64,000 bases of DNA from Patescibacteria group bacterium (lineage in GTDB: Bacteria; Patescibacteriota; Patescibacteriia; UBA2591; UBA6264): NCBI GenBank assembly GCA_016784145.1, contig JADHVF010000001.1, forward strand, positions 90,367 through 154,366, written 5' to 3'. Below are positions 3,169-26,960 of this stretch, piece by piece. The position numbers and the translations under genes were made by a program. Position 1 is the first letter of the stretch. Every line of letters starts with the position of its first letter. Below the pieces are notes generated by a model. The model ran no database searches. It was given only the letters and a program-made list of their open reading frames with translations, and was not told the origin of the DNA.

Positions 3169-4134
3169 ATGGATGCACCGATTGCAATTGAATTACAAAT
3201 TACAGACAAATGTAATTTAAGATGCAAACATTGTTGTCAGGATAATTATTCAAAAATAATGCCCATGAATAAAATCAAAGAAATTTTGAAGATATTATAT
3301 AAAAAAAATGTTTTTGAAATTAGTTTGGTTGGCGGAGAATTATTTACACATCCAAATATTTGGGATATTTTAGATTTGTGTAATAATTATGATTTTGCAA
3401 TTAACATAATAACTAATGCTACATTGTTAGATAATAAATTCATAAAAAAATTAGCAAAATTCAAAAATATTGTATTTTTAGTTAGTTTGGAAGGCGTTCA
3501 CATGGTTAATGACAAGATAAGAGGAATAGGTGTTTTTAAAAAAGTTGATAAAGTTCTTCAAAATTTAAAAAAACATAATATACATGTAGAAATTTCTACA
3601 ACAATAAGTAAAAATAATATTAATAATTATCAAGAGATAATAGATTATAGTAAGTCGTTAGACATTCCTTGTAATTTTAATTTATTTAAACCATTTCATT
3701 GTAGTCAAAAAAATCTTATACTTGATCCAGACAAATATTTTAATTTTGTTCAAGATATTTTTAGTCAAAGATTAAAAAACAAAGCGAAAATTGGGTTAAC
3801 TAATGCAGCAATTGTTTCTTGTTTAATGTGCGAAAAAGATAGAAATGAATGCAGGGCCACATTGTCTGGATTAACAATAAATGTTGATGGAAAAATGGTT
3901 CCATGCCCTTTTTTAAAATTAGCTGGGTATTATAATAATAATATTTTGCCAACCTTTAATAAAAATTTTTTAAATGCATGGAAAAATAATTTTTTATTTA
4001 TGAAATTTCGGGAAGGAAACATTAAAGAATGTCAAGCTCGATCTTATATTTTTAGTAAAAATATAAATGGACTTGATCCATACGGAATTCAAGAGTTCAA
4101 AAAATATTTAAAACAGATTAACAAAAGGGCTTAA
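3169..4134 (+). CDS. Radical SAM enzyme with C-terminal SPASM/twitch-like Cys cluster
   Basis: N-terminal CNLRCKHCC (CxxxCxxC radical SAM cluster) followed by a GGE motif (LVGGELF). C-terminal CLMCEKDRNEC...VPCPF...C resembles a SPASM auxiliary-cluster motif. Strong GGAGG RBS at 3139-3143. The start may be TTG at 3154. Confidence 0.8.
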   Translation: MDAPIAIELQITDKCNLRCKHCCQDNYSKIMPMNKIKEILKILYKKNVFEISLVGGELFTHPNIWDILDLCNNYDFAINIITNATLLDNKFIKKLAKFKNIVFLVSLEGVHMVNDKIRGIGVFKKVDKVLQNLKKHNIHVEISTTISKNNINNYQEIIDYSKSLDIPCNFNLFKPFHCSQKNLILDPDKYFNFVQDIFSQRLKNKAKIGLTNAAIVSCLMCEKDRNECRATLSGLTINVDGKMVPCPFLKLAGYYNNNILPTFNKNFLNAWKNNFLFMKFREGNIKECQARSYIFSKNINGLDPYGIQEFKKYLKQINKRA

Positions 4135-4151
4135 AAGTGATATGTTAAGAA
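4117..4151. repeat. Direct repeat copy 2 (35 bp)
   Basis: att[a]acaa[a]agggcttaaaagtgatatgttaagaa. Overlaps the stop codon of the radical SAM gene. Flanking sequence differs from copy 1 on both sides. Confidence 0.7.
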
Positions 4152-4270
4152 AAGTTCATTGAATTTTTTAATAATAAAAAAAGATGCTGTTATGAAAATA
4201 TAGCGATTATTTGATATTATTGTAATTTTTAACGCAACATTGTTCTTTGTTTTAGAATATGGAGTTCTGG

Positions 4271-4310
4271 TAAAAAAATCTCCACAAAATTTTTATGGAG
4301 ATTTTTCTTT
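4271..4310 (+). terminator. Rho-independent terminator
   Basis: ATCTCCA (4278-4284), loop, TGGAGAT (4296-4302), then TTTTT. It lies ~140 nt of non-coding sequence after the rSAM stop codon. Confidence 0.5.
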
Positions 4311-4343
4311 ACTTTATTATAATATTTTTGTTATAATTAAAAC

Positions 4344-5054
4344 ATGTTTTTAAAGAAAGCAAAAAAAGTCAAAGTATTAATAGGGAAATTGATATCTAAA
4401 AGCAAGCAACCTAAAAAAATAAAAATAACAATTTTTAGTTCAGGCATACTTGGCTTAATCGCCCTTGTTTTAATTGTTGGAATGTATTCTAGGATGACAA
4501 CAGAACAAAATGTTATTAATAATAGAATTGATAAATTAGTATTAGAAATAAAAGAATTAAAAAACAGGACAATTACTTCAAGTCAAAAAATATTTAGAGA
4601 ACCAGCCACAATAATAGTTGATAAAAATGGTTTATGGGTTGTAGATCCAGCTGATTGTCCATATTTTGATTTGTCAATTTTCCCAGGGCAAAATTGTAAA
4701 CCAAATCAAATTTGCGGAAAAAGTAATAAAATAGCTCAATGTTACAATATGAATAAATTAATTCCCCCAAAATCAATTGCAATTTCAAATAAAAATTGGG
4801 CAGATTTTTTATATGATAATAAATTAGCCAATGGAGGATTTTTAATTAATTGTTATGCACCCATAGACAATAATGCGCCCTTTTGTGATAATAATGAAAA
4901 ATTTTGGTGTGACAGGAGTGATTTTTGTTACGACCAACAAAAAAGAGAAACTATTTGTTTGCCAGGGGGTTGGGGGAAATTTAAGTGCGGTGATTGTTTA
5001 GATGGATATGAAGATAAATTTGCTTCTGATATTTGTGAAATAAAAGAAAAATAA
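4344..5054 (+). CDS. Membrane-anchored Cys-rich (12 Cys) extracytoplasmic protein, hypothetical
   Basis: Basic N-terminus, one TM helix (IFSSGILGLIALVLIVGMY), then ~190 aa containing 12 Cys (CPYF, NCKPNQIC, QCY, NCY, FCD, WCD, FCY, ICL, KCGDC, ICE). Confidence 0.6.
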   Translation: MFLKKAKKVKVLIGKLISKSKQPKKIKITIFSSGILGLIALVLIVGMYSRMTTEQNVINNRIDKLVLEIKELKNRTITSSQKIFREPATIIVDKNGLWVVDPADCPYFDLSIFPGQNCKPNQICGKSNKIAQCYNMNKLIPPKSIAISNKNWADFLYDNKLANGGFLINCYAPIDNNAPFCDNNEKFWCDRSDFCYDQQKRETICLPGGWGKFKCGDCLDGYEDKFASDICEIKEK

Positions 5055-5085
5055 AAAAGCCCATTTTATATGGGCTTTTTTTTAA
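5053..5085. terminator. Rho-independent terminator (bidirectional)
   Basis: GCCCAT (5059-5064), loop tttta, ATGGGC (5070-5075), then T8. Confidence 0.7.
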
Positions 5086-5091
5086 GAAGAC

Positions 5092-5241
5092 TTACCAATT
5101 CATAAATCTGAGAAATGAGCCGAGAAATAGGCCAAATATAGTTCCACTGAAAAAGGCCATTATTACTACAACTCCTGGAGAAGAGGCATTTTTTATTATT
5201 TCTCTTATGAAAAGGTCAAAATCTGTTTGATTCTGTTTCAT
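5092..5241 (-). CDS. Small hydrophobic protein (49 aa), hypothetical
   Basis: MKQNQTDFDLFIREIIKNASSPGVVVIMAFFSGTIFGLFLGSFLRFMNW. A GGAGGA RBS lies 6 nt upstream of the ATG. Below the 60-aa cutoff of the supplied ORF track. Confidence 0.35.
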   Translation of the reverse strand: MKQNQTDFDLFIREIIKNASSPGVVVIMAFFSGTIFGLFLGSFLRFMNW

Positions 5242-5353
5242 TTTTTCCTCCGTTGATTGATTTTAAAGATGGCTTAATAATATCAATTATATTGTTTTTT
5301 GTCAAGATTGACGAGTATTTACTTTAAGCATAATATTCTTTATAATATTTAAC

Positions 5354-5755
5354 ATGATAATTAGTTCAAAAAAGTTTGGCAAGATTTTAGTGGTAATGGT
5401 GGCTATTTTTTTGATGTTTAATTATTCTAATTTAATTTCTAATAAAAATAATGAGCAAACACAAGTAAATTCAAATAAAAATAATGGGGAGGCAAGATTA
5501 AATGTGGCTGGGAAAATTTTAGGAGAAAATATTGAAATAGGTGGCATTAGAATAACTGATAATCCAGGCATAAATAAAGTTTTGACTGACTTAGATGGAA
5601 CTGGCACTGGCGTGTGGAAAGAAGTTGATGAGATAAAGATAACTCAACAAAAAATTGATGACAGGATTATAAATATTTTGATTATATTTTTGTCTACTTG
5701 TTTAGTGCTCTATCTCTTAAAAGATAGACAAAATAATAATAGATTTAAATTTTAA
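5354..5755 (+). CDS. Hypothetical protein with N- and C-terminal TM helices
   Basis: 133-aa ORF. TM segments near residues 10-30 and 105-125, with a G/T-rich middle. Confidence 0.45.
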   Translation: MIISSKKFGKILVVMVAIFLMFNYSNLISNKNNEQTQVNSNKNNGEARLNVAGKILGENIEIGGIRITDNPGINKVLTDLDGTGTGVWKEVDEIKITQQKIDDRIINILIIFLSTCLVLYLLKDRQNNNRFKF

Positions 5756-5757
5756 TT

Positions 5758-6255
5758 ATGCCTGAATTAAATAAGGAAAAAAAAATAGAGTCGGTTATAA
5801 AACCAGCCCCAGAAGGATTAAAAACATCTAAAACAGAATCCTTCCCAATTCCCGAAACAGAAACCAATGAACAATCAGAATCTGTTCCTCAAGCAGAACA
5901 TCCTCAAACCCCTATTCAATCAATTCAGCCAACTGTTCCTCAACAACCAGTTGAAGTAGTAGACAAGTCAGTTAGGTTGAAAAAGATTGAAGACATTTTA
6001 GCTGATGGAGTGGACTTGATTTATGATGAATTGCCAAATGATGTTAAAAAAGAATTTAAAAAGCAAGGAGAGGAAACAGCTTTTAAGATTGATGAAATTA
6101 TTTCAAAAACCAAAATAGCTATTTATAAAATCATTGGACTTATTAAAAAATGGTTAATAATTATCCCAGGAGTTAATAAGTTTTTTTTAGAACAAGAAAC
6201 AAAAATTAAAACAGAAAAAATATTAGAATTTGCTGACAAGTATAAAAAAGAATAA
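5758..6255 (+). CDS. Hypothetical P/Q/E-rich protein
   Basis: 165-aa ORF starting 3 nt after the previous gene. Low-complexity P/Q-rich N-terminal half. Confidence 0.45.
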   Translation: MPELNKEKKIESVIKPAPEGLKTSKTESFPIPETETNEQSESVPQAEHPQTPIQSIQPTVPQQPVEVVDKSVRLKKIEDILADGVDLIYDELPNDVKKEFKKQGEETAFKIDEIISKTKIAIYKIIGLIKKWLIIIPGVNKFFLEQETKIKTEKILEFADKYKKE

Positions 6256-8752
6256 ATATATTAAAATGTTTGAAACAATAACAATTACTTCTAACATGAT
6301 AGGGATAGCTTTAATAGGAATAGCCAGCATGGTTATTTTTATTATTTTAATTAAATATTTAAGAAAAATTAGTGCTTTTAAGTTTTCTTTTGAGAGAATT
6401 GTTTTATTGATTACAATTCCAAAACATTCAGGAGACAAGAACAAAGATAACCAGCAAAAATCAGCTAAAGAAATGTTAAAGCCAATGGAAGATTTTTTCA
6501 GTATTGTGGCTGGACTCAAGGCGCAGAAAGGCATAAAATCATATCTTTTTGGTAGAAGTGATGCTTTTTCATTTGAAATTGTATCTGATAAAGACGGCTT
6601 AATTTCTTTTTATTTTGTTATTCCAAAAGAATCTCAACAATTTTTTGAACAACAAATTCAAGCACAATATCCAAGTGCTAATGTAGAACAAGTGTCTGAT
6701 TATAATATTTTTATTCCCCAGGGAGAAGTAACAAGTTCTTATTTAAAACTAAAAAATTATTCAATGTTTCCTATAAAAACATACTTAAAATCAGAAACCG
6801 ATCTTTTAATTGCAGTAATAAATTCTCTAAGTCAAATTCCAAAAGAAGATGCAGCTTGTGTTCAATTTGTAGTTCAGTCAGCTAAAAAAGGTTGGCACAA
6901 TTGGGGAAGCAAGGTTGCTAGAGAGATGCAACAAGGCAAAAAGTTAGATAAAGCTATTTCAGTTGCCATGACTGGTCGTTTTATGTCTTTGATAAATAAT
7001 CTTTTAAGCTTGTTTGGAGGAGTAAAACAGTCAACAGAACAACCCAAAGAACATAAGCTTTCTCCAATGGATCAAGAGGTTATTAAATCATTGGAAGAAA
7101 AATCAAGCAAGGCAGGCCTTGATGTTAATATTAGAATTATTGTTTCTTCAAAGACAGTTCAAAAAGCAGAGATGTATTTAAATAATATTATAAATTCATT
7201 TGCTCAATTTACAACTTATGAATATGGTAATGGTTTTCTCCCAAACAAGAAAAAGCAAGCCAAAACAATTCATGACTTTATATACAGATTTCTAGATAGA
7301 AAAAGAGCTTGTTTGCTTAATGCAGAAGAAATGGCTAGTGTTTTTCATTTACCAACAGCTGAAATACAGACTCCAAATATAAATTGGCTTTTAGCAAAAA
7401 AAGCCCCGGGACCAATAAATATTCCTCAGCAAGGATTATTCTTGGGATATAATATTTTTAGGGGGGAGAAAACACCAATTAGAATTAAAAGAGGGGACAG
7501 AAGAAGACATATGTATGTTATTGGCATGACAGGAGTAGGTAAATCATGGTTTATTGAAGGACTATGCATGCAAGATATTGTTAATGGGGAAGGGGCTTGT
7601 TTTATTGACCCGCACGGAGACGCAATTGACCATCTTTTGGAAAGAATCCCTAAACAACGGGCAGAAGATGTTATTTTATTTGACCCGGCTGATATTGAGA
7701 GACCTTTAGCACTTAACTTGCTTGAATATGATACTCCTGAACAAAAAACATTTGTTGTTAATGAAGTAATGAATATTTTTGACAAACTATATGATTTAAA
7801 AGCAACCGGGGGGCCAATGTTTGAACAATATTTTAAAAATGCATGTTTACTAATAATGGATGACCCTGAATCAGGCTCAACCTTATTAGAGGTCCCAAGA
7901 GTTTTGGCTGATGAAGAATTTAGAAAAATGAAATTAGCAAAATGCAAGACAGAAGTTGTTAAGGATTTTTGGGAAAAACAAGCTCTTAAAGCTGGTGGAG
8001 AGGCTTCTTTACAAAACATGGTTCCGTATATTTCTAGTAAACTAACCCCTTTTATTGCTAATGATTTTATGAGGCCCATTATTTCACAACAAAAAAGTAG
8101 TTTAAATTTTAGTGAAGCCATGAATAATAAAAAAATTATTTTAGTAAAATTGTCAAAAGGGAAGATAGGGGATAATAATGCTTATTTATTAGGCATGATT
8201 TTAATCGCCAAACTTTTAATGGCTGCCCTGGGAAGAGGGGGCATCCCAGAAGAAGAAAGGAATGATTTTTATTTATACATTGATGAGTTTCAAAATTTTT
8301 TAACTGATAGCATGGAAACGATTTTATCAGAAGCTAGAAAATATCGTTTATGTTTAACCATTGCCCATCAATACATAGGCCAGTTAGTAAAGGCAGGGGA
8401 TACTAAATTTAAAGATGCTATTTTCGGTAATGTGGGGACAAAAGTTGCTTTTAGAATTGGAGTTGATGATGCAGAGGCCTTAACAAAAGAGTTTGCGCCT
8501 GTTTTTAGTGACAGTGATTTCTTGAATATGCCAAAATATACAACTTATACTAAACTGTTGATTGATAATGCTAATCCCCCTGGTTTTAGCATGGCCACGG
8601 TACCATTTGATGATATTCCAGGGGTTGGAGATGCTAATCCAGCCATGGCTGAAGCCATTGCTAAAATTTCCCGGCTTAAATATGGCAAAGACAGAACCAT
8701 AATAGAAAGAGAAATAGCAGACAGGGTTAATAAATTAAAAGAACTTGAATAA
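6230..8752 (+). CDS. VirD4/TraG/TraD-family (type IV coupling-protein-like) P-loop ATPase with N-terminal TM and a ~400-aa extension
   Basis: N-terminal TM helix. Walker A is GMTGVGKSW. A DPHGD block follows, and the Walker B-like region is YLYIDEFQNF...HQYIGQL, typical of TrwB/VirD4/TraG (FtsK-HerA superfamily). The start may be the ATG at 6266. Confidence 0.7.
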   Translation: MLTSIKKNKYIKMFETITITSNMIGIALIGIASMVIFIILIKYLRKISAFKFSFERIVLLITIPKHSGDKNKDNQQKSAKEMLKPMEDFFSIVAGLKAQKGIKSYLFGRSDAFSFEIVSDKDGLISFYFVIPKESQQFFEQQIQAQYPSANVEQVSDYNIFIPQGEVTSSYLKLKNYSMFPIKTYLKSETDLLIAVINSLSQIPKEDAACVQFVVQSAKKGWHNWGSKVAREMQQGKKLDKAISVAMTGRFMSLINNLLSLFGGVKQSTEQPKEHKLSPMDQEVIKSLEEKSSKAGLDVNIRIIVSSKTVQKAEMYLNNIINSFAQFTTYEYGNGFLPNKKKQAKTIHDFIYRFLDRKRACLLNAEEMASVFHLPTAEIQTPNINWLLAKKAPGPINIPQQGLFLGYNIFRGEKTPIRIKRGDRRRHMYVIGMTGVGKSWFIEGLCMQDIVNGEGACFIDPHGDAIDHLLERIPKQRAEDVILFDPADIERPLALNLLEYDTPEQKTFVVNEVMNIFDKLYDLKATGGPMFEQYFKNACLLIMDDPESGSTLLEVPRVLADEEFRKMKLAKCKTEVVKDFWEKQALKAGGEASLQNMVPYISSKLTPFIANDFMRPIISQQKSSLNFSEAMNNKKIILVKLSKGKIGDNNAYLLGMILIAKLLMAALGRGGIPEEERNDFYLYIDEFQNFLTDSMETILSEARKYRLCLTIAHQYIGQLVKAGDTKFKDAIFGNVGTKVAFRIGVDDAEALTKEFAPVFSDSDFLNMPKYTTYTKLLIDNANPPGFSMATVPFDDIPGVGDANPAMAEAIAKISRLKYGKDRTIIEREIADRVNKLKELE

Positions 8753-8756
8753 AATT

Positions 8757-9842
8757 ATGGTTATTTATAGAAAATATCGACCACAAAAATTTAAAGATGT
8801 GATTGGACAAGCCAATATTATTGAGATTTTACAAGGGCAAATAAAACAAGATAAAATAGCTCATGCTTATTTATTTACAGGCCCAAGAGGGCTAGGAAAA
8901 ACAACCATTTCTCGCTTAATCGCTAAAGCAGTAAATTGTCAAACAAGAAAAAAGGGAGAATCAGAACCATGCAATAAATGCTCAAATTGTCAAAACATCA
9001 CTCAAGCAAGATTTCTTGATTTAATAGAGCTTGATGCAGCTTCACATACAGGAGTTGATAATGTTAGGGAAAATATTATTTCAATTAGTCGTATTCCGCC
9101 ATCCGCTGGAAAATATAAAATATTTATTATTGATGAATGTCATATGCTTAGCAAGTCAGCTTTTAATGCCTTGTTAAAAACATTAGAAGAACCACCTGCT
9201 AATGTTATTTTTATTTTGGCAACCACGGAAATTTTTAAACTACCTGATACAATTATTTCAAGATGTCAGAGATTTGACTTGGCAAAAGTTTCTATTGATG
9301 AAATTATTAAAAGATTAGCTAAAATTGTTAAAGCAGAAAAAATTAGAGTTAATCCTCAAGTATTAGAATCAATTGCTATTAGAAGTGAAGGATGTGTCAG
9401 GGATGCTGAAAGTTTATTAAATCAGGTATTAGCTATTGATACTAAAAAAATAACAGCCAAACAAGCAGAATTAGTAATTCCGTTGGCTCAATCAGGATTG
9501 TTATTTGAGTTTTCATCTGTAATATTTAAAAAAAATGATGCTCGTGCAATTAAAATGATTAATGATTTTATAGATAAAGGAATGAATGTTGAACAATTTA
9601 ATACAGAATTGATTGAGTTTTTAAGAAGAATTATGCTTATAAAAATTGGCACTGTAAAACAGAGTGTTTTTTGGAAATATGATGAACAATTTTTCAAAAA
9701 AATGACTAAACTTGCCAAAGAAGTTGAATTAAATGATTTAATTTTATTTATAGAAGAGTTTATCAAAGCAAAAGTGCAATTCAGATACAATGAAATCGCA
9801 CAATTGCCTTTAGAATTAGCAGTTTTAAAAATTTGTAATTAA
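8757..9842 (+). CDS. dnaX: DNA polymerase III subunit gamma/tau (short, gamma-like)
   Basis: YRPQKFKDVIGQ, GPRGLGKTT, Zn module CQTRKKGESEPCNKCSNC, DEC box, SRCQ. 361 aa from the ATG at 8757; the ORF track begins at a TTG at 8745. Confidence 0.85.
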   Translation: MVIYRKYRPQKFKDVIGQANIIEILQGQIKQDKIAHAYLFTGPRGLGKTTISRLIAKAVNCQTRKKGESEPCNKCSNCQNITQARFLDLIELDAASHTGVDNVRENIISISRIPPSAGKYKIFIIDECHMLSKSAFNALLKTLEEPPANVIFILATTEIFKLPDTIISRCQRFDLAKVSIDEIIKRLAKIVKAEKIRVNPQVLESIAIRSEGCVRDAESLLNQVLAIDTKKITAKQAELVIPLAQSGLLFEFSSVIFKKNDARAIKMINDFIDKGMNVEQFNTELIEFLRRIMLIKIGTVKQSVFWKYDEQFFKKMTKLAKEVELNDLILFIEEFIKAKVQFRYNEIAQLPLELAVLKICN

Positions 9843-9955
9843 AAATATAATATGAGTGATTTTTTATTAGAAATAATTAGAGGAGTAATTATTTCGAGAA
9901 TTTTTCTCATATTTTTATAACTGGTAAAAAATTAGAAATAGAATAAATATATTGT

Positions 9956-10026
9956 TCGGGGGTCGTCTAATGGCAGGACATTAGGTTCTGGTCCTAAGAA
10001 TCGGGGTTCGAGTCCCTGCCCCCGAG
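9956..10026 (+). tRNA. tRNA-Gln (anticodon CUG)
   Basis: Manual cloverleaf. Acceptor TCGGGGG/CCCCCGA, D-stem GTCT/GGAC, anticodon stem TTAGG/CCTAA with loop TTCTGGT (anticodon CTG), T-stem CGGGG/CCCTG with TTCGAGT loop, discriminator G. Confidence 0.85.
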
Positions 10027-10121
10027 TTTAGATATTTTAAATTTTTTTAATAAAAAAGACTGGATTTTGATTATTTATGTGTTATAATTAATTTATATAA
10101 TTAGTATTAATTTTTAATCTT

Positions 10122-10508
10122 ATGGCATTATCTATTTTTCTGGCAAAAGTAATTGGACTTTTATTTGTAATAATGGGTCTGTTATTTTTCTTTTACAAAA
10201 AAAACTTTAAAATAATCTTTAAAGCAATAGCCAATGAAGAAGCAATGGTTTTATCTGGCTACCTTTCATTAGTGCTCGGGCTTTGCATGGTAGTTGGACA
10301 TGATTTCTGGTATGGCGGTATATGGAGAGTTATAATTACTCTTATTGGCTGGCTAGCTTTAATTAAGGGAATAGTCAGGCTTGCTTGTCCAAAATATACA
10401 GTTAAAATGATTCACAAGCTTCAAAAAAAAGACAGTATCTTGCAAGCAATGGTGGTCTTTATGATGGTGCTTGGGGCATATTTAGCATATATGGGATTTT
10501 CTTTATAA
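10122..10508 (+). CDS. Small integral membrane protein (4 predicted TM), hypothetical
   Basis: 128-aa ORF, highly hydrophobic. Confidence 0.5.
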   Translation: MALSIFLAKVIGLLFVIMGLLFFFYKKNFKIIFKAIANEEAMVLSGYLSLVLGLCMVVGHDFWYGGIWRVIITLIGWLALIKGIVRLACPKYTVKMIHKLQKKDSILQAMVVFMMVLGAYLAYMGFSL

Positions 10509-10520
10509 AATAATATAAAA

Positions 10521-10631
10521 AGGAGCGGACAATTTTGTCGCTGGGGATTAGAGGTTTTCTTTTCCTTCTTTAATCCAAGAATGCGCATGTTTTAGCCATA
10601 ATGCGTTCTTCTGTCCTCAGCGACCTTTTTA
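10521..10631 (+). promoter_or_regulatory. Candidate structured RNA / attenuator element ending in a T-run
   Basis: AAGGAG followed 8 nt later by a 12-codon TTG ORF. An 11-bp long-range stem GTCGCTGGGGA / TCCTCAGCGAC encloses ~70 nt. An alternative short hairpin AGCGGAC/GTCGCT uses the same 5' strand. Ends in CCTTTTT. Lies between the membrane-protein gene and the ABC transporter promoter. Confidence 0.25.
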
Positions 10632-10658
10632 TTATAAACATACTCCACAGAAATTTAT

Positions 10659-10686
10659 TTGACAAAATTTAATATTTTTTTATAAT
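10659..10686 (+). promoter_or_regulatory. Near-consensus sigma70 promoter TTGACA-N16-TATAAT abutting the start codon (leaderless mRNA predicted)
   Basis: TTGACA 10659-10664, TATAAT 10681-10686, ATG at 10693, only 6 nt after the -10 element. Confidence 0.5.
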
Positions 10687-10692
10687 ATTATT

Positions 10693-11622
10693 ATGATTGA
10701 AGTTAATAAACTAACAAAAAAATTCGGACATATTTTAGCGGTTGATAATGTTTCTTTTGATATAAATAAAGGAGAAGTGGTAGGATTTTTAGGACCAAAT
10801 GGAGCTGGTAAAACAACTACGATGAGAATTATCACAGGCTTTTTATCTCCGGACAGAGGAGATGTTAAAATTGTTGGCATTTCAGTAAACAAAGATCCAA
10901 TCAATGCTCGTAAATTGATTGGATATTTGCCTGAAAATAATCCACTATATGGAGATATGCTTGTATCGGAGATGGTTAATTTTACTGGAAAATTACAAAA
11001 TATAAAAAAAACAAAATTAAAAAAATCAATTGAATTTATAGTTAATGCAACTGGTATTTCAGAAATTTATTACAGACCAATTAAGGAGTTGTCTAAGGGG
11101 TATAAACAAAGAGTTGGGATTGCCTTGGCACTTTTGGGAAAACCAAAAGTTATTATTTTAGATGAACCAACCGAAGGGTTGGACCCTAATCAAAGAATTG
11201 AAATTAGAGAATTGATAAAAAATTTAGCAAAAGATAGAACTGTTATTTTGAGTACTCATGTTATGCAAGAGGCTTCAGCTGTTTGTAGTCGTTTGATTGT
11301 TATAAATAAAGGGAGAATAATAAGCGATGGTTCTCCAGAAGATATTGCTAGGTCAACTCAACCAGAAAACATCATTGTTGTTAAAATTCAAGGAAATGAT
11401 GTTCAAAAACATATTGAAAGATTGGATGATGTTCAAGAATTTGATTTATTACAATCAAATAAGGATGTTTTGGCTGCTAAAATAATAGTGAGACAAGACA
11501 GGGTTGTAGAACCTCAAATTTCTAAATTATCTCGCACATATAATTGGACTATTTGGAAAATGTATCCTCAAGAAAAACAACTTGAAGATGTATTTAGAAT
11601 TCTTACTTCGAGAAAAGATTAA
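10693..11622 (+). CDS. ABC transporter ATP-binding protein (GldA-like, ABC-2 type)
   Basis: MIEVNKLTKKFG start, GPNGAGKTT, LSKGYKQRV, ILDEPTEGLD. Confidence 0.85.
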   Translation: MIEVNKLTKKFGHILAVDNVSFDINKGEVVGFLGPNGAGKTTTMRIITGFLSPDRGDVKIVGISVNKDPINARKLIGYLPENNPLYGDMLVSEMVNFTGKLQNIKKTKLKKSIEFIVNATGISEIYYRPIKELSKGYKQRVGIALALLGKPKVIILDEPTEGLDPNQRIEIRELIKNLAKDRTVILSTHVMQEASAVCSRLIVINKGRIISDGSPEDIARSTQPENIIVVKIQGNDVQKHIERLDDVQEFDLLQSNKDVLAAKIIVRQDRVVEPQISKLSRTYNWTIWKMYPQEKQLEDVFRILTSRKD

Positions 11623-11629
11623 ATAAATT

Positions 11630-13855
11630 ATGAATAAAAAAAATATCTTAACAATTATAAAAAAAGAGTTATCAGCTTATTTTAATAATCCAACTGCTTA
11701 TGTTATTGTGGCTGCTTTTTTATTTATGGCCGAGTTTTTATTTTTCAAACAAGCATTTCTTATTGGACAAAGTTCTTTGCAATCTTTATTTTTTTTATTG
11801 CCATGGCTGTTTCTTTTATTTATACCAGCTATTACCATGGGCTCAATCTCGCAAGAAAAAAATCAATCAACTCTTGAGTTCCTTTTAACAAAACCTTTAA
11901 AAGAAATAGACCTTATTATTGGAAAGCTTTTATCATCTTTAATTTTTGTAACAATAAGTTTATCATTTTTTATTCCCATAGCAGCTAGCTTTTCTACTTT
12001 GGGAAATTTTGATTGGGGAGCATTTGTAACACAATATTTAGCAGCAGTATTTTTAGCAGGTGTTTTAATAAGTTTAGGTATATTTGTTTCAAGTTATTTT
12101 GACAATCAAATTTCATCATTTTTAATTTCTGCTATATCAAGTTTTTTTATTATAATTATTGGATTTGACATTATTACAGCTAGTTTGCCTTATTGGTTGG
12201 CAAATATTACAGGAGAATTGTCTGTTCTAACCCACTTTACTTCAATGTCTCGTGGAGTTATTGATTTTAGAGATGTCTGGTATTTTATATCTTTTGTATC
12301 GTTATTTTCAGCTTTGGCTTATTTGCGTCTAATGAAGAACAAATATAGCAATCAAGCCAAGAGATACAGGACATATAAAACAGGTATTTTATTATTTATT
12401 GGCATAGTCATCTTTACAAATATTATTGGTGCTCGCTTGCCTGGTAGAATTGATTTAACTCAAGATAAAATTTTTACATTAACAACCACAACCAAAAACA
12501 CACTGAAAGATTTAGATGATATTGTTAATATCACATTATATGTATCAAAAGATTTGCCTGCTCGTGTTAAGCCAGTTATGAATGAAATAAAATATACTTT
12601 AAATGATTATAAAAAACTAGCAAAAGGGAATATTCAGGTTGATTTAAAAAATCCAACAGTTAATCCAGCGGTTGTTAATGAAATGAGGTCATATGGAGTT
12701 AATGAAATGCAATTTAATGTTATTGAACAAGAGGAATTAAAAATAAAAAAAGGAACATTAGGAATTGTGGTTTCTTATGGTTCAAAATACGAAACAATAC
12801 CATTTGTTCAAGATACAAGAGATTTGGAATATAATTTAACTAAATTTATAACTAAATTAACAAATAAAAATAAAAAGAAAATTGTTTTTTTTGATGGTTA
12901 TGGGTCAAAAAAAATAGAAGACTTTAGCTTAATAAGACAAGAACTTGAACAACAATTTGAAGTTAGTAGTTTTGAAATTAATCTTGAAACACCAGAAGTT
13001 CCAAGTAATACTAACTTGTTAATTATTCCGGGAGTGTCAGAGCAAATTGATGAATCAGTTTTGCAAGGGCTTGATAACTATGTTAAAAACAAAGGAGCGA
13101 TTATGGTTTTATTGGACGGCGTTTTTATAAATCCTCAGGCACAGCAGATTAACAAAAATGAGACCAATTTGATATTATGGCTAAAAGATAATTACGGGAT
13201 AACATTAAATAATGATTTGGTTTATGATTTGCAGTCAAACGAGATGGTTTCTTTTGGTGGAGGATTTTTTAGCTATAGTTTACCATACCCATTATGGGTT
13301 AGGGGATTACCATTAGACAATATTCCAATCACTAATAGAATCTCTAATATTGTTTTGCCTTGGACCAGTTCTTTAAAGGTAAATGAAACAAAGGCATTGG
13401 AACAAGGATTTAATCCAATGGTTTTATTTACTACAAGTCAGTCAGCCGGGTCTATAAAAGAAAATTATAATATAGCTCCTGACCAAACTTTTCCTAAGGA
13501 TAATTTAGCTAAACAAGATTTAATAATTGCTTTAGAACCAAAGCAATTAAAATCAAATTTAGGCAGGATTATAGTGGTTCCAGATTCTGACTTTCTTTCT
13601 AATGCTCATATTCAGGGAAGTATTCAAAACAGCGCTTTTGCGCTTGAATCATCTTCATGGCTAAGTCAAGAGATATCATTGGCTGGTATAAAAATAAAAC
13701 AAAAAAATAATAATAAACTTTTATTTCAAAATCAAAATCAACCAAAATTAATTAAATATATTAATTTATCAATTAGTATCATAATCCCTTTTATAATTGG
13801 GTTTACTTATTTATTAAAAAGACGCAACAAGCAACAACTAACTTATTTGTCTTAA
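11630..13855 (+). CDS. Fusion of ABC-2 permease (GldF-like) and GldG-like ABC-type uncharacterized transport system domain
   Basis: N-terminal ~240 aa has 6 TM helices (ABC-2 permease). The remainder matches the GldG-like pattern (RIDLTQDKIFTLTTTT...ITLYVS...) and ends in a C-terminal TM anchor. Confidence 0.65.
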   Translation: MNKKNILTIIKKELSAYFNNPTAYVIVAAFLFMAEFLFFKQAFLIGQSSLQSLFFLLPWLFLLFIPAITMGSISQEKNQSTLEFLLTKPLKEIDLIIGKLLSSLIFVTISLSFFIPIAASFSTLGNFDWGAFVTQYLAAVFLAGVLISLGIFVSSYFDNQISSFLISAISSFFIIIIGFDIITASLPYWLANITGELSVLTHFTSMSRGVIDFRDVWYFISFVSLFSALAYLRLMKNKYSNQAKRYRTYKTGILLFIGIVIFTNIIGARLPGRIDLTQDKIFTLTTTTKNTLKDLDDIVNITLYVSKDLPARVKPVMNEIKYTLNDYKKLAKGNIQVDLKNPTVNPAVVNEMRSYGVNEMQFNVIEQEELKIKKGTLGIVVSYGSKYETIPFVQDTRDLEYNLTKFITKLTNKNKKKIVFFDGYGSKKIEDFSLIRQELEQQFEVSSFEINLETPEVPSNTNLLIIPGVSEQIDESVLQGLDNYVKNKGAIMVLLDGVFINPQAQQINKNETNLILWLKDNYGITLNNDLVYDLQSNEMVSFGGGFFSYSLPYPLWVRGLPLDNIPITNRISNIVLPWTSSLKVNETKALEQGFNPMVLFTTSQSAGSIKENYNIAPDQTFPKDNLAKQDLIIALEPKQLKSNLGRIIVVPDSDFLSNAHIQGSIQNSAFALESSSWLSQEISLAGIKIKQKNNNKLLFQNQNQPKLIKYINLSISIIIPFIIGFTYLLKRRNKQQLTYLS

Positions 13856-13870
13856 ACAAAACAATAAATT

Positions 13871-14425
13871 ATGTCTAAAAAATTAATAATTACATTTGCT
13901 GTTATATTTCTTTTGCTGGGGCTAATTGTTCTTTATCCTTTTATTGAAAATAGAAATACAAACAATAAAACAAAAATTGACACAAATTTTTTAGTAGGCA
14001 TAAATTTGAATTTAATTGAAAAAATAAGAATAAAATCAATTGATGAAGATGAAATTCTTTTAGAAAAAGACGATGATTTATGGTCAGTGAATGGCTTTCA
14101 AGCAGACAAGGAAATTGTAAATAATTTTTTGAATAGTTTAAAAAATATAAAAGTAGATAAAATTGTTTCAAAAAATCCAAGCAATCATAAAGAATTTTTG
14201 CTTGGGAATGACTTGGGTAAAGAAATTATTATAATCCAGGAAGATAATATAATAAGTTTTTTGACTGGGAAAAAAGGAGTTGAATACAATTCTGTTTATT
14301 TAAGATGGCCCAACCAAGATGAAGTATATCTAGTAAAAACAAATATAAATGATTTTTTGATTAAACAATCTCAAGAATGGGAGAATAAAGATATTAATGT
14401 AAATACAGATAAAAATATAGATTAA
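13871..14425 (+). CDS. Hypothetical membrane-anchored protein (possibly a short DUF4340-like partner of GldG)
   Basis: 184 aa with an N-terminal TM helix, located where a DUF4340 protein usually sits after gldG. Homology is not verifiable here. Confidence 0.4.
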   Translation: MSKKLIITFAVIFLLLGLIVLYPFIENRNTNNKTKIDTNFLVGINLNLIEKIRIKSIDEDEILLEKDDDLWSVNGFQADKEIVNNFLNSLKNIKVDKIVSKNPSNHKEFLLGNDLGKEIIIIQEDNIISFLTGKKGVEYNSVYLRWPNQDEVYLVKTNINDFLIKQSQEWENKDINVNTDKNID

Positions 14426-14506
14426 AAATTGTTTTTTAGTAAAAAAAAGTGTTATAATTTAACCTGTGTATAATTAATTACATTTAAGAAATTAATCTAA
14501 AAAAAT

Positions 14507-14881
14507 ATGGAAAAAAAGTATCTTTATTTATTAATCGCAATCATTGTGTTAATAATAATTGTTGTTGGCATGATTTCTCAGACCACAACCAAAAATCTTA
14601 CAGAAGAAGCATTAATTGATGCGACTGAAAAACAAGAAATAATTAAAACAGATTCAGAGGAATTGTTGGTTGACCCAACCAACAAAGACGCATTACTTGA
14701 TCCTTTTGGAGAAAAAATTAGTGGAGCAGAAACATTGGAAGCTAATTTAGAGGACATTGAAGAATCTCTTACAGGAGAAATAGATTCATTTTTAAATGAA
14801 CTTGAACAAATCGAAGAAGATTTAGGGGATGATAGTGCTTTAGAATCTCTTGATGATGAATTAGTTAACATTTTTGAATAA
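14507..14881 (+). CDS. Hypothetical acidic protein with N-terminal TM
   Basis: 124 aa. TM helix, then a D/E-rich tail. Confidence 0.45.
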   Translation: MEKKYLYLLIAIIVLIIIVVGMISQTTTKNLTEEALIDATEKQEIIKTDSEELLVDPTNKDALLDPFGEKISGAETLEANLEDIEESLTGEIDSFLNELEQIEEDLGDDSALESLDDELVNIFE

Positions 14882-14912
14882 AATAATAAAATAAAAAAAT
14901 AAAAATATTTTT

Positions 14913-15812
14913 ATGAAAAATAAAAACATCAAAAGCACTTTTATTATTGCTATAATTGGTACTATTTTGTCTAGCATTTTAGTTTCAGCCACATTGGCTC
15001 AGGCAGGTGATTTAAAGACCAAACAACAAATAAAAGCCCGTACTATTATGCTCGAATCTCCAACCGCTAAAAGCAAAAAACCTATATTAAAATATAAAAG
15101 CATTAAAAGTAGTTACAAGCAAGAAGTAGATGCATTTAAGAATACAAAAAAACAATTTTTAGATGCCAGGGGGAAATTCAAGAGCTTCAAAAATAAAGAA
15201 AACAAAGCAGTGCTTGAAGACAGTGCTAGGGATTATTTAAAAAAGACAATATTAGTATTAATAAAAAAAACAGAATCAATCAATGACTGGGTCTCTAATG
15301 ATAAAAGCATAGAAGACCAAGAAAAAAATAATATAATTACTGAGTTAGATTCAGATATTTCATGGCTAAATTCAATGGTTGACAATATAGATGAAGCAAC
15401 CCAAGAACAAGTAAAAGTCAAAGCAAAAGAAGTAAAAGATTACTGGAAAGAGCATCGTGTAAAGATGAAAAAAATTACTGGTCAAATCATGGCATCAAGA
15501 ATCAGTTTTCTTATTAAAAAAAGTGAATTAATTTCAACTAAAATTTCAAGCAGAATAGAAAAATTAAAACAAGCTGGTAAAGATGTTTCAGCCATAGAAG
15601 CAATTCCAAATGTTCTTAATGAGAAAATTAATTTAGCAAAAGTAAAAGCAACCTCAGCTAAAAGTACATTTTCGTCAATATCAAACTTGTCAGAGGCTAA
15701 TAATCTATTTTTAAAAGGTAGAGGGTTTGTTAGCCAAGCGCAGACATATATAAAAGAAGGCAGAAATAGTATTAAACAAATGATTTCAGCGCACAGACAA
15801 GCAAACAAGTAA
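14913..15812 (+). CDS. Hypothetical secreted K-rich coiled-coil protein
   Basis: 299 aa. Signal peptide ...VSATLAQA, then K/E-rich. Confidence 0.45.
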   Translation: MKNKNIKSTFIIAIIGTILSSILVSATLAQAGDLKTKQQIKARTIMLESPTAKSKKPILKYKSIKSSYKQEVDAFKNTKKQFLDARGKFKSFKNKENKAVLEDSARDYLKKTILVLIKKTESINDWVSNDKSIEDQEKNNIITELDSDISWLNSMVDNIDEATQEQVKVKAKEVKDYWKEHRVKMKKITGQIMASRISFLIKKSELISTKISSRIEKLKQAGKDVSAIEAIPNVLNEKINLAKVKATSAKSTFSSISNLSEANNLFLKGRGFVSQAQTYIKEGRNSIKQMISAHRQANK

Positions 15813-15844
15813 GAATACTTTATTAAAAATAATTTAAGTATATA

Positions 15845-15876
15845 AAAAAAGGGCTAGAATTTTCTAGCCCTTTTAT
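15845..15876 (+). terminator. Rho-independent terminator
   Basis: GGGCTAGA (15851-15858), loop aatt, TCTAGCCC (15863-15870), then TTTT. Confidence 0.7.
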
Positions 15877-16096
15877 GGTCTTGCTTACGCTTATTAAGGA
15901 GGATAGCAGAAACTGCCCAAAATCTTTATCCAAGATTTTTCAAAAGCAGAGAGATATTCAATAAAGGATAAGCATAGACCTTAAAAACCTCCATTTTTTT
16001 TGTATAATTTCTTAAGTATTATAACAATAGCATATTTAAATATTTTGTCAAGCTTTGTATGTTGAAAAAATAATGTATTTTTGATAATATAAAAAC

Positions 16097-17404
16097 ATGG
16101 AATATATTTCTAAAATTAAACAATCTGATTTAACTAAGATTTATTACTGGCTCATTGTTTTCGGTATTTTATCATTTTTATTATTTGGTAACTTTTTTTT
16201 AAAAAATATTGTTATAGCTCAAAACAATTCTAAAAACAATAATCAAACAAAACATGTTTTACCAAATAATCAGTCGGATAATTTATTAAACATTCCTAAT
16301 GTTGCTGAGAGGCAAACACAACCAGAATTTATTATCAAAGAATATATAGTGCAGTCAGGAGATGTGTTTTCACTACTAGCAGAAGAATTAGGCATAACTA
16401 ATGAACGAATTCATCAAATTATAAATAATTCAAACAATGTTTATGATTTTGCCAGCATAATGGCTGGAAATTCTATTCAGTCATTTTTTGATTTCAAAAC
16501 AAATGAATTTGTAAAAATGGTCTATAATATAAATGAAAATAATTATATTTTAATAGAAAATACTAATTTAGATATAATAGTAAAAAAAATTAAAAGAGAA
16601 TATGACATTAAACTAACAAAAGTGAGAGGCATTGTAGACGAATCTTTTTATCTTGCCGGACAAACTGCCGGACTTAAAGACAAAACCATAATGGAAATGG
16701 CTGATATTTTTGCATGGGACATTGATTTTGGCATGGAAGTCAAACAAGGAGATGTGTTTGAATTTTTATATGAAAAACGCTTTTTAGATGGACAAGAAGT
16801 GTCTCCTGGAAAAATATTAATTGCTAGTTATAATAATCAAAATAATGTTCATACGGCCTTATATTATAAAGACCCTGAAGGAAGTTGGGATTATTATGAT
16901 ATAAATGGTCATAATTTGCGTAGACAATTTCTTCGTTCGCCTATAAACTATAGGTATATTAGTTCAGGATTCAGTTATAAGCGAATGCATCCTGTTTGGG
17001 GAGTATATACAACTCATACTTCAATTGATTATGCTGCCTCTTGTGGTACGCCTGTGTATGTTCCCGGGGATGGCATAATTACATTCGCGGGTTGGAAAAA
17101 TTATGTTTATGGTTATACGGTTGAAGTAAGACATAATGGAGTTTATCAAACAAGATACTCTCATCTTTCTAATTTTGCCAAAGGAATAAAATATGGTACT
17201 AAAGTCAAACAAGGACAAATAGTTGCTTTTGTTGGCACAACAGGAACTTCAACAGGTTGCCATCTTGATTATGGAATGAAAAAATATGGACAAGCAGTAA
17301 ATCCGTTGTTACAAAAATTCGACCGTTCAGACCCGGTTAAAGCAGATTTTGTAGGAAATTTTGAATTTGAAAAAAATATCCTTATAAACCTATTGAAAGA
17401 ATAG
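16097..17404 (+). CDS. LysM domain-containing M23 family metallopeptidase
   Basis: N-terminal TM. LysM motif EYIVQSGDVFSLLAEELGIT. M23 motifs HTSIDYAA, RHNGVYQTRYSHL, GTTGTSTGCHLDY. Confidence 0.85.
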   Translation: MEYISKIKQSDLTKIYYWLIVFGILSFLLFGNFFLKNIVIAQNNSKNNNQTKHVLPNNQSDNLLNIPNVAERQTQPEFIIKEYIVQSGDVFSLLAEELGITNERIHQIINNSNNVYDFASIMAGNSIQSFFDFKTNEFVKMVYNINENNYILIENTNLDIIVKKIKREYDIKLTKVRGIVDESFYLAGQTAGLKDKTIMEMADIFAWDIDFGMEVKQGDVFEFLYEKRFLDGQEVSPGKILIASYNNQNNVHTALYYKDPEGSWDYYDINGHNLRRQFLRSPINYRYISSGFSYKRMHPVWGVYTTHTSIDYAASCGTPVYVPGDGIITFAGWKNYVYGYTVEVRHNGVYQTRYSHLSNFAKGIKYGTKVKQGQIVAFVGTTGTSTGCHLDYGMKKYGQAVNPLLQKFDRSDPVKADFVGNFEFEKNILINLLKE

Positions 17405-25763: not shown

Positions 25764-26048
25764 ATGGTAGGCATTAAAAAAATATTTGGTCTGTTTTTTA
25801 ATCAGAGCGTCAATCCAATCCAAGGAGTATGTTGGAAGGCAATAGGAGAGAAGAGGTTCCTATTTAACTATAATTGCTCGAGAAAAACAGATATTGGAAA
25901 AAAGGAGGTTTTTCCAAATAAGCCAACATATAATTTTAATGCCTGAATTTTTCCACTCCTTAATTATATTTATATGATAACATATTTTTTTAAAAAAGTT
26001 ATCCACAAACTATGATAAAAACAAATAATTTGATATACTAAATATAAC

Positions 26049-26960
26049 ATGAAATACAAAAATGAAATAAAATTATATAAAAGAACAAGAGCATCTAGAC
26101 ATTCTACTAGTAGAAAAAGATTCTTGCGCAAGCGTAATAAAAAATTAAAAATTTTAATATTTATATTGGCAATAATATTGGCAATAATATTTATTTTTTA
26201 TTTTTTATTTTTTAGCAATTTTTTTAAAATTGATAAGGCAGCCATATCTTTTAATAACAGAAAATCTGAATTAATTTTAGAAGATGAAATTCAAGAAATA
26301 ATTTCTGATTTCATGAATAAAAAATATTTTTCTATTTTAGCTGGAAATAATTTAATTCTTCTTAAAACTAATTTACTTAAAAATAAAATTAAGCAAGATT
26401 CAAGAATAAGTTCTGTTTTTATTAATAAAAAATTGTTTCCTCGTTGCAAATTGCTTGTAAAAATAGAGCAAGTTGAACCAGTAGCTAATTTAATTATCTT
26501 GGGAGATAAAAAAATATATTATTTAAACTCTCTAGGACAGATAATTATGCCTTCTACTAATAATTCTGGCAATCAATTATTATATGAAATGCCTGTATTT
26601 TATGACCAGAGTTCTATAAATATAAAAAAAGCAAATGTGGTAAAATTTTTTAATAATTTATTGTCCTTTATAAATAATTCTATTTTAAAAAATATAAATG
26701 GAGTAAATATAAACAAAATAGACATAGACGAAGAGGGGAGTATACTAACAGCCAAAATGACAACAATAGATAATTGGCAAATATTTATTAACTCAGAAAT
26801 TAATATTAATGAACAATTAGTTAAATTAAATAAAATTTTATCGCAAAAAATTGGGATAGAGGAAAGAAAAGAATTAAAATATATTGACTTACGTTATGGC
26901 AACAAAATATTTCATAAATTCATAGATTTAGACGAAGAAGAAATAGAATCATTAGAATGA
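26049..26960 (+). CDS. FtsQ/DivIB-like cell division protein (TM plus POTRA-like region), tentative
   Basis: Basic N-terminus, single TM (ILIFILAIILAIIFIFYFLFF), then a beta-rich ~230-aa ectodomain. Confidence 0.4.
   Translation: MKYKNEIKLYKRTRASRHSTSRKRFLRKRNKKLKILIFILAIILAIIFIFYFLFFSNFFKIDKAAISFNNRKSELILEDEIQEIISDFMNKKYFSILAGNNLILLKTNLLKNKIKQDSRISSVFINKKLFPRCKLLVKIEQVEPVANLIILGDKKIYYLNSLGQIIMPSTNNSGNQLLYEMPVFYDQSSINIKKANVVKFFNNLLSFINNSILKNINGVNINKIDIDEEGSILTAKMTTIDNWQIFINSEININEQLVKLNKILSQKIGIEERKELKYIDLRYGNKIFHKFIDLDEEEIESLE

Follow-up and report, generated by a model that had tools for sequence, protein, structure and literature searches.

The window analysed here is a stretch of 64,000 nucleotides (nt) from contig JADHVF010000001.1 of a Patescibacteria group bacterium (GCA_016784145.1). 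It encodes at 6266-8752, on the forward strand, an ATPase of 828 amino acids (aa) whose motor domain is supported by sequence and structure comparisons as being of the VirD4/TrwB type and not of the FtsK/SpoIIIE type. As judged from structure prediction, the ca. 400 aa that precede this motor are a module like the N-domain of VirB4. The gene is a near-universal chromosomal core gene of the Patescibacteria, or candidate phyla radiation (CPR), and is typical of the family catalogued as DUF8128. We favour, with a probability of about 0.5, the reading that the protein is an exapted coupling ATPase of monoderm type that would serve the relaxase-less type IV secretion system (T4SS) of these bacteria, the service to the T4SS being the part that we infer. 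The parts of the protein lie as follows, numbered from the first nucleotide of the window (NBD, nucleotide-binding domain; T4CP, type IV coupling protein).

6266-8752, forward strand: DUF8128-T4CP-like ATPase, 828 aa from ATG 6266 (the alternative TTG 6230 gives 840 aa)
6296-6352, forward strand: N-terminal transmembrane helix, residues 11-29, MIGIALIGIASMVIFIILI, read from the sequence
6392-7480, forward strand: N-domain, residues 43-405, PF26449/DUF8128 (precomputed Pfam, domain model, Foldseek, hhalign)
7481-8635, forward strand: P-loop motor (NBD) of TrwB/VirD4 type (Pfam, PDB profile search, hhalign, Foldseek)
7523-7546, forward strand: Walker A, GMTGVGKS (sequence motif)
7607-7621, forward strand: DPHGD (sequence motif)
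7736-8125, forward strand: residues 491-620, all-alpha insertion of the NBD (model secondary structure)
7988-8005, forward strand: KAGGEA, invariant, within the all-alpha insertion (columns of alignment A1)
8267-8296, forward strand: Walker B, FYLYIDEFQN (sequence motif)
8357-8386, forward strand: motif C (AHQY), TIAHQYIGQL (sequence motif)

Classification of the motor agreed with the initial annotation, which had described the protein as a VirD4/TraG-type ATPase to be checked with profile models. The NBD scored above the Pfam gathering thresholds for TraG-D_C (36.6 bits, threshold 22) and TrwB_AAD_bind (33.5 bits, threshold 20.5), gave 27.6 bits with DUF87, and was borderline for T4SS-DNA_transf (20.3 bits, threshold 20.1). 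A profile made from 50 homologues matched in the PDB only TrwB (2.4e-5) and DotL (8.5e-4), the closest relatives by sequence there, and hhalign comparison of the family alignment rendered 95% for TrwB against 1.5% for TrwK/VirB4. Foldseek aligned the motor with TrwB at an E-value of 7e-12 and a target-normalised template modelling (TM) score of 0.62-0.66 over ca. 420-460 columns. Walker A, Walker B and motif C are intact, and all the motifs that had been claimed, as well as the N-terminal transmembrane helix, could be located in the sequence. The all-alpha insertion consists in the AlphaFold model of eight helices between the Walker A and Walker B halves, at the place that the all-alpha domain occupies in TrwB. 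Scores with the NCBIfam equivalogs of TraD/VirD4 were all far below cut-off, the best being 38.9 bits for TIGR03743, whose cut-off is 366.

The initial annotation had set FtsK/SpoIIIE against this assignment. Pfam analysis rendered no match to PF01580, no gamma domain and no region of four transmembrane helices, and because of this lack of any FtsK/SpoIIIE signal the VirD4-type classification stands. Membership of VirB4 was not found by sequence either, since neither PF03135 (CagE_TrbE_VirB) nor PF12846 (AAA_10) was matched, and a phmmer search with TrwK retrieved nothing in the related loci. An anti-phage defence system was considered and rejected, as PADLOC gave weak P-loop matches to mad8 and HerA alone and none for the small genes next to the ATPase; in the case of HerA there is a weak DUF87 P-loop match, and neither a HAS-barrel nor a NurA (or Sir2/DUF4297) partner was found.

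It had also been stated that the C-terminal ca. 440 aa are the ATPase, which is upheld, and that the first ca. 400 aa are unassigned, which no longer holds. PF26449 (DUF8128) covers the N-terminal ca. 360 aa of a database protein 100% identical to ours (P0001), the assignment being the precomputed Pfam annotation of that protein and of the listed homologues. The full-length AlphaFold model (predicted local distance difference test, pLDDT, 87; predicted TM score, pTM, 0.78) comprises a long N-terminal helix, an alpha/beta N-domain, a RecA-like NBD and the all-alpha insertion, and in a Foldseek search of the PDB it ranked TrwK/VirB4 of R388 first (E ca. 1e-13, ca. 900 columns), followed by TrwB (E ca. 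1e-11, TrwB-normalised TM score 0.62-0.66) and then by HerA (E 1e-10), Cag-beta and DotL. When the N-domain was modelled alone (pLDDT 88.7, pTM 0.85), all 14 PDB matches at E<1e-3 were TrwK/VirB4 chains that include the N-terminal domain, with a best E-value of 2.2e-6 and query-normalised TM scores of 0.41-0.43, while the next matches were unrelated (E>0.02). TrwB and the crystal structures of the VirB4 C-terminal domain were left unmatched by this search, which indicates that the likeness is to the N-domain of VirB4. Sequence proof of this homology was obtained neither with the N-domain profile against the PDB, nor with Pfam searches of 12 N-domains, nor with hhalign against TrwK. A single-sequence search with the N-domain retrieved 1,782 cluster representatives, in which the domain always starts ca. 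40-80 residues from the N-terminus. A hydropathy peak precedes it in all the full-length non-fused homologues, and in the window protein the transmembrane helix has positive-inside flanks and is directly followed by KYLRK, which argues for an N-out/C-in topology with the bulk of the protein in the cytoplasm.

Homologues outside the CPR point to the origin of this architecture. The protein matched phrog_5156 of PHROGs over its full length (6e-85), and tblastn found gp156 of Bacillus phage G (1e-47), homologues in Herelleviridae, for instance CP-51, SP-10 and Goe26, and plasmid homologues from Bacillus, Peribacillus, Clostridium botulinum and haloarchaea, the phage and plasmid proteins being 20-25% identical at ca. 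85% query coverage; relatives of the ATPase part only were found in Sulfolobus, Streptomyces and others. With the N-domain profile, hhalign gave 98.6% for gp156 and 97.2% for a Bacillus plasmid protein. In phage G (L099, NC_023719 86952-97108) the homologue gp156 is accompanied by gp153 (TrbL/VirB6-like), gp154 (small) and gp155 (VirB4-like, with P-loop_TraG and AAA_10), so this jumbo phage carries a compact T4SS-like gene set. In CP-51 (L098) a weak pilin-like gp97 and the actin-like segregation protein gp96 are found along with the homologue gp91 and the Replic_Relax protein gp90, and the order in a 24.7-kb plasmid of B. subtilis is homologue, replication-relaxation protein, conjugal transfer protein, TcpE and a VirB4-like ATPase that matches PDB 4AG5. 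Haloterrigena plasmid pHTS138 (L101) carries a pilin, a 1,099-aa conjugal transfer protein, a 399-aa N-domain open reading frame (ORF; 7758-8957) and the ATPase (8947-12051), these last two being separate adjacent ORFs that tblastn matched in two pieces; the split parallels that of TrsD and VirB4 described for the CPR. These contexts indicate that the two-domain architecture is the second ATPase, in the T4CP slot, of T4SS modules of monoderm/archaeal type, which matches the published MPF-FATA origin of the CPR T4SS. No experimental characterisation of the plasmid, phage or haloarchaeal homologues was found in the literature.

Within the CPR, more than 1,960 full-length homologues with 55-70% identity were found, and all those with an organism name are Patescibacteria; PF26449 is present together with PF10412, PF01935 or PF12696 in all the 120 listed. 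When one genome per species was scanned, the ATPase was detected, at 40-70% identity, in at least 570 species, among them Uhr-, Falkow-, Komeili-, Magasanik-, Moran-, Nomura-, Sung-, Peregrini-, Dojka-, Berkel- and Doudnabacteria and Saccharimonadales. Mean pairwise identity in the 27 genomes with both genes was 0.478 for the ATPase and 0.458 for DnaX, the two sets of identities showing a weak positive correlation (r=0.28), which as a probe of vertical inheritance is not decisive. By region, mean identity was 0.61 in the NBD core, 0.56 in the all-alpha insertion, 0.41 in the N-domain and 0.17 in the transmembrane segment. Since the family was already catalogued and orphan T4CP homologues of the CPR were published in 2025, the window gene is to be taken as a typical member.

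A second full-length paralogue (B) was found at two loci, either in tandem (L065:1128-3587 and 3587-6163) or 3 kb apart (L066:7920-10487 and 13621-16548), and a 496-aa partial copy at L072. Paralogue B is ca. 35% identical to clade A and matches the window protein with ca. 423 bits over residues 98-823. A survey by Quinonero-Coronel et al. reported 5,713 VirD4-type homologues in 2,918 of 3,035 CPR genomes (PMC12102498), a count of about two per genome that fits, and is explained by, the second paralogue. Assuming that each of two paralogues is detected like VirB4, that is in 80% of draft genomes, 1-0.2^2 = 96% of genomes would be expected to show at least one, and the wider spread of T4CP homologues would therefore not be evidence for independence from the T4SS.

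Some members, including the Saccharimonadales type, have Pro/Ala-rich disordered C-tails of 100 to ca. 1,200 aa (P0319, P0333, P0363, P0351, P0348; L081:5850-9176, L084:7950-10790), many of which open with FLDEWLAKR and close with the short conserved GEV[FY][VI]DE.GNV..GE. In the C-terminal extensions of members of 1,000-2,000 aa no domains were found, just Pro/Ala-rich disorder. These tails, which the window protein lacks, recall those through which TraD and DotL bind their partners. Many contigs with family members (for example L005, L008, L026, L049, L068) bear the public titles 'uncultured Gammaproteobacteria', 'Bdellovibrionales', 'Methylomirabilota' or 'Bacillota' and show typical CPR synteny, and they look like mislabelled or mis-binned metagenome-assembled genomes.

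The neighbourhood of the gene was analysed by calling ORFs in 84 related loci and in the window and searching them iteratively. At the window locus, the three ORFs that had been described (5354-5755, 5758-6255 and 6230-8752, the last one of 840 aa from a TTG) are all present, and the features that accompany the ATPase are these.

5053-5081, no strand assigned: perfect hairpin with a 12-bp stem and A-/T-runs on its flanks (terminator scan)
5354-5755, forward strand: 133-aa ORF, first gene of the operon, with two hydrophobic segments; strain-specific and outside the conserved module
5758-6255, forward strand: U1, small partner protein of 165 aa, conserved C-half at ca. nt 5977-6240
8757-9842, forward strand: dnaX (clamp-loader gamma/tau; Pfam DNA_pol3_delta2, 2.7e-43)

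ATG 6266 is the most likely start of the ATPase, rather than TTG 6230; the 100%-identical database protein is annotated from that ATG with 828 aa. The tight packing that had been pointed out is thus retained, but the overlap of the ATPase vanishes and becomes a 10-nt gap after the 165-aa ORF. The hairpin lies directly after the stop of a 236-aa ORF and is probably a terminator for both directions, ending the genes before it and setting the upstream limit of an operon. With this hairpin upstream, the tight gene order and dnaX beginning 4 nt past the ATPase stop, the unit formed by the 133-aa gene, the 165-aa gene, the ATPase and dnaX looks like an operon.

Co-conservation of the two small genes with the ATPase, which the initial annotation had suggested checking, applies to only one of them. 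The 133-aa ORF has the two hydrophobic segments that had been read as transmembrane, and no homologue of it was found by tblastn and jackhmmer in the 84 loci except in the same strain (L001), nor any Pfam, PADLOC or PHROG match. In 31 of the 70 loci that have enough upstream DNA, on the other hand, the ATPase has a U1 homologue immediately upstream in the same orientation, mostly at -25 to +20 nt from it, and all the named lineages among these loci are of Uhr-, Falkow-, Komeili-, Magasanik- or Buchananbacteria type. U1 had been described as P/Q-rich, which is true of its variable N-half, a P/Q/E-rich low-complexity region, but not of its C-terminal ca. 90 aa, which are helical and conserved (alignment A4) with the motif WLK.IPGVNKFFLEQEAKIKTDKI. 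At least 1,711 database homologues of U1, all 'hypothetical' and all from Patescibacteria, were found, and U1 has no Pfam domain and no sequence relative in the PDB.

A different protein of ca. 140 aa, U2, occupies the same upstream position at 21 other loci, and hhalign indicated no homology between U1 and U2 (0.3%). In six Nomurabacteria-like loci (L062, L071, L072, L077, L079, L083) U2 and the ATPase form a single in-frame fusion, giving ORFs of 908-936 aa, and it is exactly these six ATPases that lack the transmembrane helix, the fused protein being predicted as soluble. We take the fusion as strong evidence that the small upstream protein cooperates physically with the ATPase at its N-terminal end. 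At two Saccharimonadales loci the small protein is of a third kind, U3. Directly 3' of the ATPase, a conserved protein of ca. 200 aa, D1, is present in 27 of 73 loci, often before dnaX (examples are L002:10599-11210, L003:10505-11125 and L004:10677-11243); its C-terminal core reads EGVFDGQ.MIG.DGK.Y.VPANYASKSKLVEGD.LKL, no Pfam or PDB relative was found, and it is absent from the window.

The locus has a probable counterpart in Southlakia epibionticum ML1, for which transposon sequencing (Tn-seq) is published (PMC10633639). A Saccharibacteria locus (L084, UBA2018) encodes a family member of 946 aa, 38% identical to the window protein over residues 20-828, whose clusters carry PF26449, in the order small ORFs, ATPase, 192-aa gene (reverse strand), DUF11 gene (reverse strand), gyrB and gyrA. 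This gene order is identical to that of SEML1_0142-0146: in ML1, SEML1_0141 (139 aa) and SEML1_0142 (1,019 aa, named 'TraM recognition domain-containing') are followed by SEML1_0143 (reverse strand), SEML1_0144 (DUF11, reverse strand), SEML1_0145 (gyrB) and SEML1_0146 (gyrA) (PMC10633639, Tables S1 and S2). Synteny and family membership therefore suggest SEML1_0142 as the probable counterpart of the window ATPase; by name, it was not among the best 120 matches of a search seeded with the L084 protein. In the Tn-seq data SEML1_0142 is a core, Patescibacteria-enriched gene, class I essential alongside DnaG, RpoD and GyrB and scored ES at T0, T1 and T2, with 114 insertions in the input going down to 11, and SEML1_0141 is scored GD/ES/ES with zero surviving insertions (PMC10633639). 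SEML1_0293, the other T4CP-like gene of ML1, is non-essential (PMC10633639). The main text of that study does not discuss SEML1_0141 or SEML1_0142, and in the 2025 survey 'the' t4cp homologue of ML1 is given as non-essential (PMC12102498), a description that fits SEML1_0293. The possibility that SEML1_0292 is the D1 equivalent, by which SEML1_0293 would become the orthologue, was rejected, since this downstream neighbour of SEML1_0293 is a GNAT protein.

The initial annotation had found no VirB4 gene, relaxase or other T4SS core gene in the window, and our results bear this out: relaxase, VirB4, VirB6 and TcpE-like genes were detected neither in the 64 kb (Pfam) nor in the 84 related loci (phmmer). 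The T4SS of the CPR is described as MPF-FATA-derived, without a relaxase and with no coupling gene in its cluster (PMC12102498, PMC10633639), and exaptation of the orphan CPR homologues of T4CPs has been raised (PMC12102498). In the reading that we prefer, the CPR protein would descend from a coupling ATPase of monoderm/archaeal type that became fixed in the chromosome, parted from the other T4SS genes and gained a membrane anchor. It would form a membrane-associated hexameric translocase driven by nucleoside triphosphates, dock at the relaxase-less chromosomal T4SS via its VirB4-like N-domain and, with the small partner, recruit and pump a polymer, either nucleic acid or unfolded protein, U1 acting perhaps as an adaptor or anchor subunit. 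A role in DNA uptake or protein export, as the initial annotation had proposed, appears more plausible given the T4SS-module contexts of the distant homologues.

Several points weigh against the exaptation for the T4SS. Most of the T4SS genes fall into class II, but SEML1_0142, already essential at T0, falls into class I (PMC10633639), and its orthology comes from synteny and family membership, not from direct alignment. There is a second clade of paralogues, and in the neighbour-joining (NJ) tree the Saccharimonadales proteins are basal: their identity is 0.37 to clade A and 0.35 to clade B, and in the NJ tree rooted with TrwB their branch is not settled relative to paralogue B. Only 148 of the 5,713 CPR homologues of T4CPs lie near virB4 (PMC12102498), and none in the 84 loci and the window. 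The likeness of the N-domain to VirB4 is one of predicted fold, with a TM score of ca. 0.42 and no sequence signal. The transmembrane helix is absent from the six U2-fused variants and from all the plasmid and phage homologues. Finally, the recurrent replication neighbours, dnaX and gyrBA, could point to a DNA function independent of the T4SS.

This last point leads to the main rival, which we consider rather unlikely: a T4SS-independent housekeeping translocase of DNA (or RNA), whose T4SS ancestry is merely historical and which would be a membrane-anchored hexameric pump working with the replisome or topology machinery, for instance in chromosome handling at division. The gene is followed by dnaX on the same strand at 31 of the 84 loci and neighbours gyrB-gyrA in Saccharimonadales, its conservation matches that of DnaX, T4SS genes are not nearby, and the presumed Southlakia counterpart shares class I with replication and transcription genes such as those for DnaG and RpoD. 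However, housekeeping gene order in the CPR is often kept without functional linkage, the non-CPR homologues of the same architecture are all in T4SS- or conjugation-like modules, and Pfam revealed no DNA-binding domain of the kind of FtsK-gamma. Moreover, S. epibionticum has a canonical essential FtsK (SEML1_0096, with 4TM, alpha, beta and gamma domains) in the obvious slot, which weakens this rival. The idea that the ATPase replaces FtsK was rejected on the same grounds, the Pfam FtsK signal being absent and FtsK complete and essential in S. epibionticum.

The second rival, an improbable one in our view, is that the protein acts like VirB4 in assembly, as an ATPase that by means of its VirB4-like N-domain would pull pilin-like or other proteins out of the membrane and erect a filament on the surface or a structure of the envelope. 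The fold of the whole protein is closest to full-length TrwK/VirB4, the N-domain matches only VirB4, the variants without a transmembrane helix resemble the peripheral VirB4, and VirB2-like pilin-domain proteins are numerous in CPR genomes (PMC12102498), one of them being in the window. This is a 1679-aa protein (47978-53017, reverse strand) with a signal peptide, a VirB2-like T4SS_pilin domain at residues 51-118 (9e-7), Big_5 and TIG; the initial annotation was right as to the pilin domain, but a tie of this protein to the ATPase locus was rejected, since no pilin-like ORF was found near the ATPase in any of the 84 loci, and this also counts against an assembly role. The motor, on the other hand, is nearer to T4CPs by the hhalign comparison with TrwB and TrwK and has the TrwB-like all-alpha insertion, the CPR already possesses a genuine VirB4 plus TrsD (PMC12102498), and the plasmid and phage modules hold a VirB4-like gene alongside the homologue.

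That a conjugative or mobilisable element, or a prophage, is integrated here and has the gene as its ordinary coupling protein is effectively refuted and extremely improbable, in spite of its Pfam T4CP domains, the match to phrog_5156 and the homologues on plasmids and phages, because relaxase, VirB4, integrase and phage genes were not found in the 64 kb (Pfam), the GC content of the locus equals that of its surroundings (ca. 28% across the whole window), housekeeping synteny is kept across dozens of CPR lineages, and the at least 570 carrier species have the protein at 40-70% identity against just 20-25% for its plasmid and phage relatives.

Exaptation for the T4SS, our preferred reading, would be of consequence for the biology of these bacteria. 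Patescibacteria are unable to make nucleotides, lipids and most amino acids. Their T4SS is essential yet has no recognised coupling ATPase or relaxase, and the DUF8128 ATPase is a testable candidate for the missing motor, for which experiments could start from its VirB4-like N-domain, from its own small partners, in some cases fused to it, and from its relatives in plasmid and phage T4SS modules. If the synteny-based orthology holds, the ATPase is essential in the only genetically tractable CPR organism, which would correct the impression given by the literature that 'the' CPR homologue of T4CPs is dispensable. A bolder proposal, which we regard as doubtful, is that the DUF8128 ATPases are a third, hitherto overlooked class of T4SS motor, with a VirB4 N-domain and a VirD4 motor, which in Patescibacteria would have turned into an essential and vertically inherited machine that, with small adaptors differing between lineages, drives uptake or export of macromolecules from the host, for instance nucleic acids, via the relaxase-less T4SS; were it true, this motor would be the missing engine of an epibiotic, nucleotide-auxotrophic lifestyle. 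No mention of DUF8128 was found in the literature searched, and four points appear to be new to it: that the N-domain is VirB4-like, that there are small partners of the ATPase's own, in some cases fused to it, how the paralogues are organised, and that the DUF8128 paralogue is probably essential.

The rest of the window is of housekeeping character, with genes for ABC-F, radical SAM, ABC transporters, MgtE, PolX, UPF0182, ClpB, gltX, fmt, MreC, PBP2, ParAB (parA/parB at 53747-55387, reverse strand) and a histidine kinase. Upstream of the hairpin, a radical-SAM gene (3169-4134, forward strand) precedes the gene of the 236-aa protein (4344-5054, forward strand), which is membrane-anchored, very Cys-rich in its C-terminal half and not conserved in the related loci; the two could be an enzyme-substrate pair. 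The 1679-aa pilin-domain protein belongs to a run of giant predicted surface proteins just upstream of mreC-PBP2, the rest of which, all on the reverse strand, comprises a 1038-aa fn3 protein (44854-47970), a 204-aa TSP3-repeat protein (44212-44826) and a 771-aa protein without Pfam match (41892-44207). It is unusual for a very large extracellular protein to have a membrane hairpin of pilin type as its anchor. The cumulative GC skew of the window peaks near 26 kb, and gene orientation and GC skew change sign together at ca. 26000-38000, from forward-strand genes with positive skew up to ca. 26 kb to reverse-strand genes with negative skew past ca. 38 kb, which may reflect a replication terminus or a mere coding-strand bias.

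When compared with known systems, the window protein shares most with the T4CPs (VirD4/TrwB/TraD/TraG; PF10412, PF02534, PF12696), with which it has in common an NBD of the FtsK/HerA superfamily with the three motifs, the position of the all-alpha insertion and an N-terminal membrane anchor, TrwB and DotL being its nearest solved relatives by sequence and fold. It differs from them in an additional VirB4-like N-domain of 360 aa between anchor and NBD, in having one transmembrane helix instead of the usual two, in an all-alpha insertion that is highly conserved in the CPR family and variable in T4CPs, and in its genetic status, as the CPR gene is unlinked to relaxase or T4SS genes, belongs to the chromosomal core and is probably essential. 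VirB4 (TrwK of R388; PDB 7O42, 7O43, 8RTD) has the same plan of a ca. 400-aa N-domain followed by a ca. 400-aa RecA-like ATPase, and the small upstream gene, sometimes fused, recalls VirB3-VirB4, although no likeness of U1 or U2 to VirB3 was found by any test run; unlike VirB4, to which it has no sequence similarity, the window motor carries a TrwB-like all-alpha insertion. FtsK/SpoIIIE and HerA are of the same ATPase superfamily as the window motor, but the window protein lacks the FtsK_SpoIIIE domain, the gamma domain and 4TM region of the former and the HAS-barrel and NurA partner of the latter. The N-domain plus ATPase architecture itself is found again in the plasmid ATPases and in phage G gp156 and CP-51 gp91, which are inside T4SS-like modules and have no transmembrane helix, the gene being split in haloarchaea. 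Lastly, the 5,713 VirD4-type homologues already reported for the CPR (PMC12102498), which are mostly orphans, almost certainly include the window gene, and our analysis adds to their description the N-domain, the small partners and the two paralogue clades.

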